A stretch of DNA of 64,000 nt from an uncultured Acidobacteriota bacterium (lineage in GTDB: Bacteria > Acidobacteriota > Terriglobia > UBA7540). The stretch lies in the NCBI GenBank assembly GCA_963804995.1, contig CAWDSK010000003.1, positions 224,001 to 288,000 on the forward strand. Direction: 5' to 3'. The position numbers and the translations under genes are program-made. Positions 51,413 through 55,669 of this stretch are shown piece after piece. Under the pieces are notes generated by a model. The model was not told the origin of the DNA and did not search any database. It saw only the letters and a list, made by a program, of their open reading frames with translations. Each line of letters opens with the position of its first letter. The first letter of the stretch is position 1.

Positions 51413-52646
51413 TTTCCAAATCCCAGTGAAGAACCCACGGCCACAAAAACGCTGACGGTGGCTGGGTGTGCGACAAATCTGTGTGGGTCAGGCCGCGCGG
51501 GGGCGACGGTTCTCCCAGTAATCCTCGAATTTGCCGCTCAAGCGATGGCAGCGAAGGGCGATGATGGCATTGGCCCCGCGGACCCTCCAGAACATACCGG
51601 AGCGCTTCAGCCGAGTGCCGATGAGGGTTTTGCAGCCGGCTTCGACGACCCCGGAACCTACGAACAGATGCTGACGCCGAAAGGTCGGATAGCGCATCCG
51701 TTGGGCGTTGACGGTAAAATAATCTGCCGCGTGGCGCAAGAGTTCGGCGGCTTCGGGCGTGGCTGGGAACAGCGAGCGCAAATCGCGCACTAGGGATTCG
51801 ATCCGCCCGCTCTCCAACTTCTCCTCCCGTTTTCTGGTCCACCTTCGGCGGTGGCGCTCGTCGGTGGGCCAGAGCTGGCCCGACAGCTCCCATAAGTGCT
51901 GTCGGGCATGATAAAGATCCACAATCTGAATGGCTCCCGGAAAGTGCTCGGCGGTGAGGTTCCAAATCCAAGGAGCACCATCGCCGATCACCACTTTCTT
52001 TTGGGCCCGGTTCCAGCCCCGACGATATGCTTCGAGGTAGATGCGTCGCCCAAAAACCTCGGCCGTTTCGATGCCTCCCGTGTAGGTGGTGGAGCCTTCT
52101 TCGCGCGCCGGTCGGCCCCGGGCATCCCGTGTCGTCTGGGCGAAGACACAACCTAATTTCACTTCCCGCGTGCGCGCTTGCTCGCTCTGTTTCCCCGCTC
52201 GACCCTCGGTTTCCGAACTCACCACCGGTACTCCCGTCCCATCCATCTCCACATAGAGTACCGGAATTTCCGGTCCCCTCACCTGCGGCAAGTTCCGTTG
52301 CAGGCCTTGCTGGATCGAGGCTTGTTCCTGGGCAGCAATCTCGGCGCCCAGAGCCTCTGCCTGCCGTTCCACGGCCTTGGTGGTCACCTCCAACCCGGCC
52401 AGCAGTTGCAGTTGTTCTCGACCGAGCGCAAAGGAGGTTTCGCTGCCCACCACCGCCATCATCCGTCGCACCCCAGGAGAATATTCCGTGCCCTCCACAT
52501 CCAGTTCCTGATCGCGGGGACTCTGTCCCCGGTCTGGACTTTGGCCTTTAACTAGATAAAGGCTGTCGGAAAGTATTTACTTGCAGAAAAGCCAGTCTTC
52601 TGATATCTAGTTATATGACTAGATATTCCTCAAGGAGGCTTTTCTC

Positions 52647-52934
52647 ATGGGGTTCCCTACCAAAGTACAGCTTATCAAACGCCAGGCGAGCGAGCAGTGG
52701 TACATCAACTTTCCTTCCGCCCTCGCCCAAGCCATGGAGTTTGCGCGCGGCGAATCGGTCGAATGGTTCGTCGAAAACAAAGGTCTGCTGGCCCTGCGAC
52801 GAGCCTCGCCGCCGCCTTCCGTGCTAAAAAAAACTCTACCGGCGTCCTCGCCGAACTCGAACAACTCTGGAGCCAATGTTTCCCGGGCTTCCGCCAGCGC
52901 CGCGTTGCCGCGCACGCCCAAGCCCTCGCGCTGA
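52647..52934 (+). CDS. IS ORF A, AbrB/MazE-like small protein
   Basis: AAGGAGG RBS; QWYINFPSALAQAMEFARGESVEW resembles the swapped-hairpin pattern; A8 run at 52826-52833. Confidence 0.65.
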   Translation: MGFPTKVQLIKRQASEQWYINFPSALAQAMEFARGESVEWFVENKGLLALRRASPPPSVLKKTLPASSPNSNNSGANVSRASASAALPRTPKPSR

Positions 52935-54274
52935 GCACCTTGCTTTGTCTGGGACGCCATACCGTGACCGGTCTGCTCACCACTTGCGGCCTGCAGTTCC
53001 GTGACTGGACCTCCAGTTACCGGCTCTTCTCCCAGCACCGTCTGCGGGTTGAGGCGCTCTTCTCCGTGGTGCGCCGCGCGGTGGTGAGCGAACTCGCACC
53101 CGGCGCTCCCGTCTGCGCCCTCCTCGATGACTCGCTGTTGCGTCGTTCCGGTCGGCGCACTCCCGGGGTGGCTTGGCGCCGCGACCCGCTGGGCCCGCGC
53201 TTTCAAACCAACTTCGTGCGCGCCCAGCGTTTTCTTCAAACCTCCCTCGCGCTCCCCACTCCCGACGGCTCCTGCCGCTTGCTCCCCATTGCTTTCCGCC
53301 ATGCCCCCACGCCCCGCAAGCCTTCCCGGCAGGCCCCCGCCGCCGAGCAGCAGCAGTACCGCACCCAAGCGCGCGCTGCCCGCCTCGGTCAACGCGCCAG
53401 CGAACAGATCCACGATCTGCGTGCGGCCCTTGACTCCGATCCCGCCTCCGCTTCGCGCCTTCTCCTCGTCGCCTTCGATGGCGGATACACCAACCGCACC
53501 GTCCTCAAACGCCTTCCTCCCCATACCACCGCCATCGGCCGGCTCCGCAAAGATGCTCAGTTGCTGTTCCGGCCCGATCCCCAAACCCAAAAGGCGCGCG
53601 GTCGCCGTCTCTGCTACGGGCCTCCCGCTCCCACTCCCGAGCAGGTCCGCACCGACGATGCTCCCTGGCAGACCTTGACCTTTACCCATCACGGCATTCC
53701 CCATCAACTCCGCTTCAAGCGCCGCACCGGCCTCCTGTGGCGTGCCGCCGGCGCCCACCAATTCCTGCAACTTGTCGTCATCGCGCCGCTCGCCTATCGT
53801 CTGCGCCAAGGTTCCAAGCTGCTCTATCGCCAACCCGCCTTCCTCCTCTGCACCGACGAAAACCTCGACCCCCAACTCCTCATCACAACTTACTTCCAAC
53901 GCTGGGACATTGAAGTTAATTTCCGCGATGAAAAAACTCTGCTGGGAGTGGGCCAAGCCCAGGTCCGCTCCCCCCATTCGGTCCAGTCTGCCCCCGCCTT
54001 CACCGTGGCCGCCTATGCCCTCTTGCTCCTCGCTACCCATCGCGCCTTCGCCCGTACCCGCCACGGCCTGCTGCCGCGCCCCAAGTGGATCCACGCTGCC
54101 CCCACTGCCCGCATCTCCACCCAACACGCCATCCATCAACTGCGCGCCGAGGTCTGGGGCCGGGGACTGGGTCTCGATCATTTCTCCGGCTTCGCGCCTC
54201 CCCAACCCTCTACAACGAAGCCCCAGAATTGTACCTTCCCCCTCGCCTCCGCCCTCTGCTACGCCAATGCTTGA
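52826..54274 (+). CDS. IS ORF B, DDE transposase in the -1 frame relative to ORF A
   Basis: LDDS, FDGGY, YFQRWDIEVNFRDEK signature; no obvious start of its own. Confidence 0.85.
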   Translation, partial: KKNSTGVLAELEQLWSQCFPGFRQRRVAAHAQALALSTLLCLGRHTVTGLLTTCGLQFRDWTSSYRLFSQHRLRVEALFSVVRRAVVSELAPGAPVCALLDDSLLRRSGRRTPGVAWRRDPLGPRFQTNFVRAQRFLQTSLALPTPDGSCRLLPIAFRHAPTPRKPSRQAPAAEQQQYRTQARAARLGQRASEQIHDLRAALDSDPASASRLLLVAFDGGYTNRTVLKRLPPHTTAIGRLRKDAQLLFRPDPQTQKARGRRLCYGPPAPTPEQVRTDDAPWQTLTFTHHGIPHQLRFKRRTGLLWRAAGAHQFLQLVVIAPLAYRLRQGSKLLYRQPAFLLCTDENLDPQLLITTYFQRWDIEVNFRDEKTLLGVGQAQVRSPHSVQSAPAFTVAAYALLLLATHRAFARTRHGLLPRPKWIHAAPTARISTQHAIHQLRAEVWGRGLGLDHFSGFAPPQPSTTKPQNCTFPLASALCYANA

Positions 54275-54584
54275 ACTGCAAAAGGCCAAAGGCCAGCGCG
54301 GGGACTCTGTCCCCGGTGACAGGCCGGACAAACGTAATAGGGACGCTCGGTCTCAACCCGCCCCAGCACGGTCAGCAGTTGCTTCCGACGCCTGCCGCGG
54401 TAGGGTGCCCCCTGACCACAGCCGCAGGGAACTTGGCGAGGGCACTCGTCCGGGGCGGCCAGCAACTCCTCCAGCACCGCCGCCCCCGCCCGGTGCAAGG
54501 CCGCGCGTGTGGCCATCTCGACGGCTTCCAAATCCAGCGTCCCGGACTTGCGCCGCCCAGCAAAGATCACCGCCAGCAGGGACT

Positions 54585-54989
54585 CTACTTCTCGCGCCAC
54601 TTCCCGCTGAATGGCTTCCGCCGTTTTTTTTCCTGCTCCGCCGCTTCGGCCTCCTGGGGGAGGGGGCGCTGACGGCAGATTTTTTCGTTCACCTCCACGA
54701 AGGCCCGGCGCAGTTGTTGAAACCTGCGGAACTCGGCAATCTGTCGTTCCGCCTGGTGCCGGGCGGCAGGGCTGGGGAAGGTTTCGCTGACGGTCCGGCC
54801 CTGCACCTTGTAAGTGAGCCGGAAGTTAGGGCCGTGGCCGGGATGATGGGGCTGATGACAGTGACAGTTGGACTTGCCGCAGCGGGCGGTAATGCTGGTG
54901 ATCGAACCACTGCGGAGGTCACCCAGTTGGGCGATCTGGCGGATCAACTCCGCCCGTTGGTTCTCCAGGACGTTAAGGGATTGGGGCAT
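54585..54989 (-). CDS. IS ORF A, DUF6788-like (CGK.NC.C...HGP)
   Basis: GGAGG RBS; RSGSI...RCGKSNCHC...GHGP; ends across the A8 run (54624-54631) overlapping the transposase frame. Confidence 0.8.
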   Translation of the reverse strand: MPQSLNVLENQRAELIRQIAQLGDLRSGSITSITARCGKSNCHCHQPHHPGHGPNFRLTYKVQGRTVSETFPSPAARHQAERQIAEFRRFQQLRRAFVEVNEKICRQRPLPQEAEAAEQEKKRRKPFSGKWREK

Positions 54990-55100
54990 GTTAAGGCCTC
55001 CTCTATCCTAACGTATCATATACGTTAGGATATAAGCGACAAAAAAAGAGCCAGCCCAGAGCGTTACATTTATGTCGCGCACCCACGGTGGCTCCTCCGC

Positions 55101-55134: not shown

Positions 55135-55428
55135 ATGGCAGCGAAAACAAGCGCGCGTGAGGAGCGGATCGGGCGGGTAGGGCAGCGGCGCCAGGTGATC
55201 ATCCCGCGCGAGATTCTCGATCGCCTCAATCTTCGGGAAGGGGATTTCGTAGCATTCAGCCCACGGGCCAACGGAGTCCTCGTCAAACCCAAGCGCTTGA
55301 TTGACCCCGAGGACATGCTCACGCCTGCCGAGGCCAAGCAAGTTCGCCAGGGGATGGAGCAGATAAAAGCCGGCCGCTTCAAGTTATGGCGGGACGTGAA
55401 GCATGCCCTGGACCATTCGGGTCGCTGA
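55135..55428 (+). CDS. AbrB/MazE/SpoVT family antitoxin
   Basis: VGQRRQVIIPREI...LNLREGD.V.F; overlaps the toxin gene. Confidence 0.85.
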   Translation: MAAKTSAREERIGRVGQRRQVIIPREILDRLNLREGDFVAFSPRANGVLVKPKRLIDPEDMLTPAEAKQVRQGMEQIKAGRFKLWRDVKHALDHSGR

Positions 55429-55669
55429 CGGCGCCCAATTATTCATTGAAAACCTCCCCGAAAAGGCCCGTCGCCAAGTTTCGCGCAGCCTCAGCCAATT
55501 GGAGGAAGACCCGTTTCGTGGCGACGTGCGACCTCTCAAGGGCAAAGAATGGCAAGGCTATTATCGTAAGCGTGCCGGCGATTACCGAATCATATTTTTC
55601 CTGCACCACGAGCAGCGACTGATTGATGTGGCATGGGTGCTGAGGCGGTCGGAAAAGACCTACCGTTGA
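55403..55669 (+). CDS. RelE/ParE family toxin
   Basis: L..DPF.GDV.PLKG...YRKRAGDYRIIF...R.EKTY. Confidence 0.88.
   Translation: MPWTIRVADGAQLFIENLPEKARRQVSRSLSQLEEDPFRGDVRPLKGKEWQGYYRKRAGDYRIIFFLHHEQRLIDVAWVLRRSEKTYR

Follow-up and report, generated by a model that had tools for sequence, protein, structure and literature searches.

An IS701-related lineage of insertion sequences that duplicates whole DNA hairpins at its target sites

We analyzed a window of 64,000 nucleotides (nt) from an uncultured Acidobacteriota bacterium (GenBank assembly GCA_963804995.1, contig CAWDSK010000003.1, positions 224,001 to 288,000), which contains a 1,763-bp insertion sequence (IS) at 52534-54296 with 16-bp terminal inverted repeats (TIRs) complementary at 15 of 16 positions. 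Directly outside the TIRs lie two 100% identical copies of a 21-mer, CGCGGGGACTCTGTCCCCGGT (Table 1), in which a 7-bp stem encloses a 3-nt loop and two free bases remain on either side. The folding energy of this repeat is -7.9 kcal/mol (z, -3.25), and shuffled sequences folded as well in 0 of 200 cases on the plus strand and 2 of 200 on the minus strand. Removal of the IS together with one repeat gives a single uninterrupted frame of 442 amino acids, both halves of which match the ISKra4 model NF033572, and 13 other copies of this host element in the genome have the empty site, i.e., a single copy with the same 15-nt flanks. Besides, the joined (empty) form with the 21-base overlap was found in contigs from three of four sequencing runs, one run possibly being that of the source sample. 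The restored frame, the empty siblings, and the joined contigs establish that the repeat is a true target duplication, as a preliminary description of the locus had claimed along with the perfect 7-bp stem. The hairpin target thus sits inside ISKra4 coding sequence.

The IS encodes a small open reading frame, ORF1, absent from the preliminary description, upstream of a DDE transposase in the -1 frame. Across the lineage described below, the ORF1 motif was present in 96 of 99 distinct elements and an A-run of at least 7 in all 99, which makes it likely that the two frames are joined into a fusion of ~542 amino acids by programmed frameshifting or slippage at the A8 run. The catalytic residues are D97 (at 53129), D213 (at 53477), and E358 (at 53912), and the full Y-2-R-3-E-6-K (YREK) motif is formed by Y351, R354, E358, and K365. 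According to the predicted structure (pLDDT, 78.8), the transposase has a Tn5-like fold, the nearest solved fold being that of Tn5 transposase (Foldseek E, 7.7e-9; prob, 1.0), while a sequence search of the PDB returned Tn5 matches only, none of them significant.

The genome holds 10 near-identical copies of the window IS, here called IS-A. The flanks of the other copies, which the preliminary description had put forward as a check, bore out its expectation of long, variable, and palindromic duplications: 8 of the 10 copies have perfect hairpin-centered duplications of 21, 27, 22, 22, 21, 18, 21, and 19 bp. The remaining two (C1:277250 and C2:761832) have reciprocally swapped flanks, and unswapping them restores a hairpin site with a 21-bp duplication and a 7-bp site, which is considered further below. 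A sister element in the same genome, IS-B (1,830 bp; 41% identity), carries a winged-helix ORF1 (HARE-HTH; E, 0.0005) that is unrelated to the ORF1 of IS-A and is coupled to the transposase by an ATGA overlap; all seven IS-B copies are flanked by hairpin duplications of 18 to 23 bp, one with a mismatch. Furthermore, three transposase-free cassettes with IS-B-type ends (6.3, 10.6, and 5.1 kb) have hairpin duplications of 19, 25, and 33 bp, respectively, and carry genes for a Zeta-toxin-like ATPase, NucS-like, AbiEi-like, ThiF, and IrrE-like proteins, and dCTP deaminase, as well as a nested IS21. Elements of 163 to 515 bp, the size of MITEs (miniature inverted-repeat transposable elements), also have IS-B-type ends, and these and one 16-nt end remnant all lie beside hairpins. 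As a control, 15 other multicopy families of the same genome, with ends set automatically, showed a hairpin at only 2 of 278 flanks.

A search for excision scars (a doubled hairpin without an element) returned one case with a spacer of 0 to 2 and three further close repeats, one of which is the 16-nt end remnant; it thus gave no evidence of frequent precise excision. No circle junctions were seen in Logan contigs, which, however, drop rare forms.

To define the lineage, we examined 80 metagenome loci (the best of 224) and 78 GTDB loci (the best of at least 542), the latter at 43 to 83% identity and from hosts including Acidobacteriota, Bacteroidota, Desulfovibrionaceae, Planctomycetaceae, and Hydrogenedentota; a profile search gave 896 representatives at an E value of 1e-30 or better. 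Element ends were set by anchoring on the end motif, and the relatives share the ends CTNGNSTTTGG and sizes of 1,753 to 1,856 bp. A flank hairpin was defined as perfect, with a stem of at least 6 bp and a loop of 3 to 5 nt, starting within 3 nt of the element end. The flanks counted are distinct and include those of the genome's own copies; ends that were not found and flanks of <30 nt were dropped. L002-L004, L005, L006, L008, L010, and L226 lacked recognizable ends or had too little flank. Five of these (L005, L006, L008, L010, and L226) are distant relatives at 30 to 35% identity, and L005, L006, L008, and L010 have both of the protein insertions described below.

A hairpin abuts 264 of the 286 distinct flanks. 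Of 54,776 offsets nearby and 20,000 positions taken at random in the genome, 457 and 86, respectively, have one (<1%). The pattern is the same in Bacteroidota and Desulfovibrionaceae hosts, and three Prolixibacteraceae copies have duplications of 19, 25, and 22 bp. This strongly supports structure-guided targeting, with duplication of the whole hairpin, as a real, lineage-wide trait. Of the elements with both flanks present, 12 of 54 from metagenomes and 43 of 64 from GTDB have matching hairpins left and right, and of the 20 copies scored in genome G303, 5 do; most of the others have a different hairpin at either end. Reciprocal flank swaps between copies were traced by eye in the present genome, between L099 and L118, and in four pairs in G303, and they may reflect recombination, replicative rearrangement or transposition, or collapsed assembly. 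At 14 of 291 flanks, another element end lies 19 to 23 nt outside, indicating tandem stacking. We also observed, on the right flank of L017, an IS-B-type end directly outside an IS-A-type duplication, so that two different members share one hairpin. In G303 (L206-L220), 17 copies with the same transposase frameshift occur beside 8 intact copies, which suggests either that the frameshifted copies spread in trans or that the frameshift is a systematic sequencing error.

Table 1. Features of the window and IS-B-ended elements elsewhere in the genome
Feature	Position	Strand	Basis
Left target-site duplication, 21 bp, hairpin (2+7+3+7+2)	52513..52533	.	repeat match, fold, empty site in 13 host siblings
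Left TIR (CTGGACTTTGGCCTTT)	52534..52549	+	repeat search; boundary common to 10 genome copies
ORF1; first 62 codons form a conserved AbrB/MazE-like domain	52647..52934	+	PF04014 E 0.027 (below cutoff); Atlas AbrB/MazE-like cluster 0.94
A8 slippery run, ORF1 to -1 transposase frame	52826..52833	+	A-run conserved in relatives
DDE transposase body (open frame from 52697)	52841..54274	+	motif, profile, predicted fold
Clade-specific insertion 1, ~15 aa, in the helix region that separates P149 from D213; may bind the hairpin	53318..53380	+	
Clade-specific insertion 2, ~9 aa, basic loop (Y-R-x-R-x-x-S-K-x-x-Y) preceding the YREK helix; may bind the hairpin	53786..53836	+	
Right TIR	54281..54296	-	repeat search
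Right target-site duplication, 21 bp	54297..54317	.	repeat match
Host ISKra4-family IS	51464..55084	-	profile matches, siblings
Host ISKra4 IS: DUF6788 ORF	54585-54989	-	
Host ISKra4 IS: interrupted transposase	54600-51488	-	
Host ISKra4 IS: own 9-bp duplication	51455-51463 / 55085-55093		
IS-B-ended cassettes (L238-L240)	C1:444888-451209, C5:1245059-1255639, C6:1026896-1031991		
IS-B-ended MITE-sized elements and 16-nt end remnant	C5:1182935-1183097, C6:1411795-1411969, C9:314569-314873, C3:683961-684475, C6:2041593-2042102, C2:613018-613075		

The geometry of insertion was derived from 69 distinct intact duplications of 18 to 30 bp, 64 of which fall within 19 to 24 bp, with a peak at 21 to 22 bp (36 of 69). 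They are exactly symmetric about the dyad in 65 cases, and in 66 the parity of their length equals that of the loop. In 40 of 69, the cut falls at offset +1, a single base beyond the last pair, and the arm, measured from cut to loop, is 8 to 10 nt in 64. This strongly supports the structure-guided targeting with staggered cuts at the hairpin base that had been postulated from the window copy alone. The 52 distinct hairpin cores, mostly similar to repetitive extragenic palindromic (REP) sequences with 3 to 41 genome copies of the core, contain 46 distinct 6-nt arm sequences and 35 distinct loops, and no position of the target exceeds 0.9 bits. The loop is 3 or 4 nt in 51 of 52 cores, compared with 25% of distinct genome hairpins with loops of 3 to 12 nt. 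Arm length correlates with stem length (rho, 0.46; P = 0.0006 for the 52 cores, a value overstated because the sites are partly related REPs; overall range of rho, 0.43 to 0.46). Long stems vary: a 12-bp stem has an arm of 13 nt, and the 15-bp stem at a cargo site has an arm of 15 nt. A stagger of fixed length was rejected. The cut rule is thus the stem foot plus a preferred arm of 8 to 10 nt, which is consistent with partial extrusion.

Two further elements of the genome were observed in passing. The host ISKra4 element made variable duplications of 8 to 16 bp in 12 of 13 copies, without hairpins, the upper values possibly including a boundary shift, and a six-copy IS family (C2:95368-96757) with CAT ends targets G/C homopolymer-rich sites with 11- to 12-bp duplications. 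Next to the host IS, at 55135-55669, lies a gene pair for an AbrB-like antitoxin and a RelE/ParE-like toxin (named by eye from the ORFs).

A plasmid search found the nearest plasmid relatives at 24% identity, annotated as unnamed "transposase." Like the present lineage, they start with the same end signature (CTNGNSTTT), and the representative L097 (Rhizobium/Sinorhizobium) scores 311 bits on NF049999 (IS701_3), which is the best family model for both. Unlike it, they have a single annotated ORF and, at the position of YREK, mostly F-x-x-R-x-x-x-E-6-R; their duplications are short: 4-bp TTAG/TAAG-type sites in 13 Rhizobium copies, 4 to 5 bp in Nostoc, and 7 bp in Streptomyces. No hairpins were seen at the usable sister-clade duplications, with five of eight sister plasmid loci (L231, L233, L234, L235, and L237) and canonical IS701, of which there is one copy (L227), yielding no usable duplication. 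Quick maximum-likelihood trees split 19 hairpin-type proteins from the sister proteins with a Shimodaira-Hasegawa approximate likelihood ratio (SH-aLRT) support of 99, or 93 with long-branch outgroups, L236 being a long branch in these trees. Two insertions follow the same split: the first region has 59 to 64 residues in 19 of 19 hairpin-type proteins and 39 to 47 in 8 of 8 sister proteins and canonical IS701, and the second has 23 residues compared with 14 to 15. IS-A and IS-B have these insertions in common and differ in ORF1, so that targeting more likely resides in the catalytic protein, as judged from a correlation across a single evolutionary split. The two insertions, at about residues 160 to 180 and 316 to 332 of the body, are candidates for binding the hairpin.

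The window transposase passes the IS701_3 model NF049999 (181 bits; cutoff, 170) and falls short of the main IS701 model NF033540 (52.7 bits; cutoff, 150), and IS-B stays below the NF049999 cutoff at 131.9 bits. According to PMC2266710, IS701 elements are characterized by a direct repeat of exactly 4 bp (Table 1), absence of YREK (tyrosine in only 4 of 27 elements), and a size of 1,400 to 1,550 bp. The present elements have duplications of 18 to 30 bp at 69 distinct sites, the full Y-2-R-3-E-6-K motif in 19 of 19 hairpin-type proteins, and sizes of 1,753 to 1,856 bp. Thus, the proposal of an unclassified IS group stands with regard to the published IS701 features and not with regard to the IS701_3 model. 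For IS4, the same source gives the motif Y(2)R(3)E(6)K, catalytic residues spaced as D(60-110)D(100-150)E, a single ORF without frameshift, and a duplication of ~10 bp (PMC2266710). The window transposase shares the YREK motif, and its catalytic spacers are 116 and 145 residues, the first just outside the range because of the insertion; ORF1, the conserved A-run, and the long duplications do not fit, and the NCBIfam IS4 models score far below their cutoffs. The IS1634 model NF033559 reached 26.9 bits (cutoff, 100), and no IS1182 or IS30 model was among the nine NCBIfam hits (E up to 1) or two Pfam hits (E up to 0.1). In behavior, the lineage shows the hallmark of structure-dependent transposition, i.e., stem-loop targets without a sequence consensus.

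The hairpin-duplicating phenotype itself is already known. IS1630 of Mycoplasma fermentans was reportedly described by Calcutt et al. in 1999. As presented in papers citing it, IS1630 belongs to the IS30 family and makes 16- to 26-bp duplications of inverted repeats (PMC3317919, PMC2853133), similar to the whole-hairpin duplications seen here. The preliminary description had regarded a known family with this behavior as grounds against its own proposal; IS1630 is indeed a precedent, but the present element matches no IS30 model. Its transposase is of the Tn5-fold, IS4/IS701-like type, so that the resemblance is convergent, and the lineage spans several phyla rather than one A+T-rich host. IS1272/TnSha1, of the IS1182 family, shows sequence-independent stem-loop targeting, for which a cruciform model was proposed (PMC5678879, PMC4923244). 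With that element, the stem-loop is lost and no duplication remains. Pathway b of the model, a theoretical alternative with joining at the 5' feet and duplication of the stem-loop (PMC5678879, Fig. 13), predicts the outcome found in our lineage, which is the duplicating counterpart of IS1272/TnSha1. ISRm22, an IS4 family element, is described as inserting centered on the axis of a REP palindrome, with a 6-bp duplication, one REP consensus, and swapped flanks (PMC1525189). Palindrome-axis centering and flank swapping are thus shared with ISRm22 and other REP-targeting IS, whereas the present elements copy the whole hairpin and use many unrelated ones. IS50/Tn5 (IS4 family) has the nearest solved fold, the full YREK motif, and CT ends, but differs in its fixed 9-bp duplication and single ORF, at 12 to 14% identity. 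The lineage belongs to none of the IS1630, IS1272/TnSha1, and ISRm22 families. No description of hairpin-duplicating IS701/IS4-like elements was found in a search of full-text papers, most subscription papers and ISfinder/TnPedia aside; the phenotype had been foreseen by the IS1272 model.

How might such duplications arise? In DDE transposition, 3'-OH ends become linked to target phosphates at staggered positions, and the sequence between these is doubled on repair. We consider it probable that this IS701-related, Tn5-fold lineage picks its targets by shape, namely, extruded hairpins, with strand transfer at their 5' feet. A perfect palindrome with a loop of 3 to 4 nt and a stem of at least 6 to 7 bp, mostly REP-like but also in coding sequence, would extrude as a cruciform under supercoiling. 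After excision by a cut-and-paste route, as the YREK motif and Tn5 fold suggest, the transpososome would attach its two 3'-OH ends, one on each strand, at the hairpin's 5' foot; the joint would usually fall a single base beyond the last pair, with a distance of 8 to 10 nt to the loop preferred, although the order of these steps is conjectural. Gap repair would then copy the whole hairpin, giving a dyad-centered duplication of 18 to 30 bp and two fresh targets, which would explain the stacked element ends. A stagger of ~21 bp that varies with stem length would be hard to achieve on duplex DNA and natural on a cruciform, because there the two 5' feet adjoin across the junction. Cruciform extrusion enters as the presumed targeting step.

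Several points weigh against this reading. The evidence for hairpin targeting is genomic, and we infer the strand-transfer chemistry from it. Many elements carry different hairpins on the left and right. The reconstructed 7-bp IS-A insertion has no centered hairpin, so structure is not obligatory; this lone event may represent the default duplex stagger, and it is a single case of the short duplications in nonpalindromic targets that had been named in advance as counterevidence. In stems of 14 and 16 bp, the cut fell inside the stem, at 10 and 8 nt from the loop, respectively; the idea that duplication length follows hairpin size holds only partially. A sequence bias is also present, in that the base at position 7 from the cut is G in 40 of 52 cores and the stems are 74% G+C. 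Moreover, a large share of the targets belong to related REP families and are not independent sites.

Of the alternatives, recruitment fares best, though we think it unlikely: a host or element protein, such as a REP- or hairpin-binding factor or ORF1, might mark or extrude the hairpin and recruit an ordinary transposase. The REP-like, multicopy nature of most targets would suit such a factor, as would the small DNA-binding ORFs of IS-A (AbrB-like) and IS-B (winged-helix), which the sister clade lacks; yet the two ORF1 types are unrelated and the targeting geometry is identical, the behavior holds across hosts of several phyla and in coding DNA at the window site, and the presence of the two transposase insertions coincides with the trait (19 of 19 versus 0 of 9).

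Stems of 7 to 8 bp are short for spontaneous cruciform extrusion. This, together with the asymmetry of 4 of the 69 duplications, speaks for hairpins captured on transient single strands at a replication fork or transcription bubble, the second strand being joined or template-switched. We nevertheless find that route rather improbable, given the DDE/Tn5 fold and the exact dyad symmetry of the other 65, the offset being equal on the two strands, which is what a two-fold symmetric transpososome acting on a two-fold symmetric junction should produce.

The length peak at 21 to 22 bp and the enriched G could also point to a dimer that reads a degenerate G/C-rich palindrome in duplex DNA with a wide (~21-bp, two helical turns) and sloppy stagger. 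This is very hard to reconcile with the lack of a consensus among the cores, with length parity tracking loop parity and the arm tracking the stem, and with perfect pairing as the common feature. Flank swaps are common in assemblies, but survivor bias, by which only intergenic REP insertions persist, and misassembled repeats are refuted by the flank controls, the empty sites, and the 15-family comparison, and selection could not create base-exact, dyad-centered duplications.

Returning to extruded hairpins as the target, we give even chances to the narrower proposition that the transposase itself is a four-way-junction-reading integrase of a multiphylum family, in which two small insertions converted an IS701-type enzyme with a 4-bp stagger so that it captures cruciforms once extruded. 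If so, the insertion sites would be an in vivo record of short-palindrome extrusion, and the element would double its own targets and mobilize transposase-free cargo into REP safe sites.

So far, the proposal of structure-dependent targeting by DDE enzymes has drawn on a small number of sites from staphylococci and mycoplasmas, and no mechanism accompanies it. The present lineage supplies dozens of base-exact sites and a rule (symmetric, foot +1, loop of 3 to 4 nt, arm of 8 to 10 nt), and its sister clade, with staggers of 4 to 7 bp, together with the two candidate protein segments makes target capture testable on a Tn5 fold. The finding is relevant to the in vivo extrusion of short palindromes and to the role of REP repeats as safe insertion sites, and it may yield a shape-programmed integration tool.

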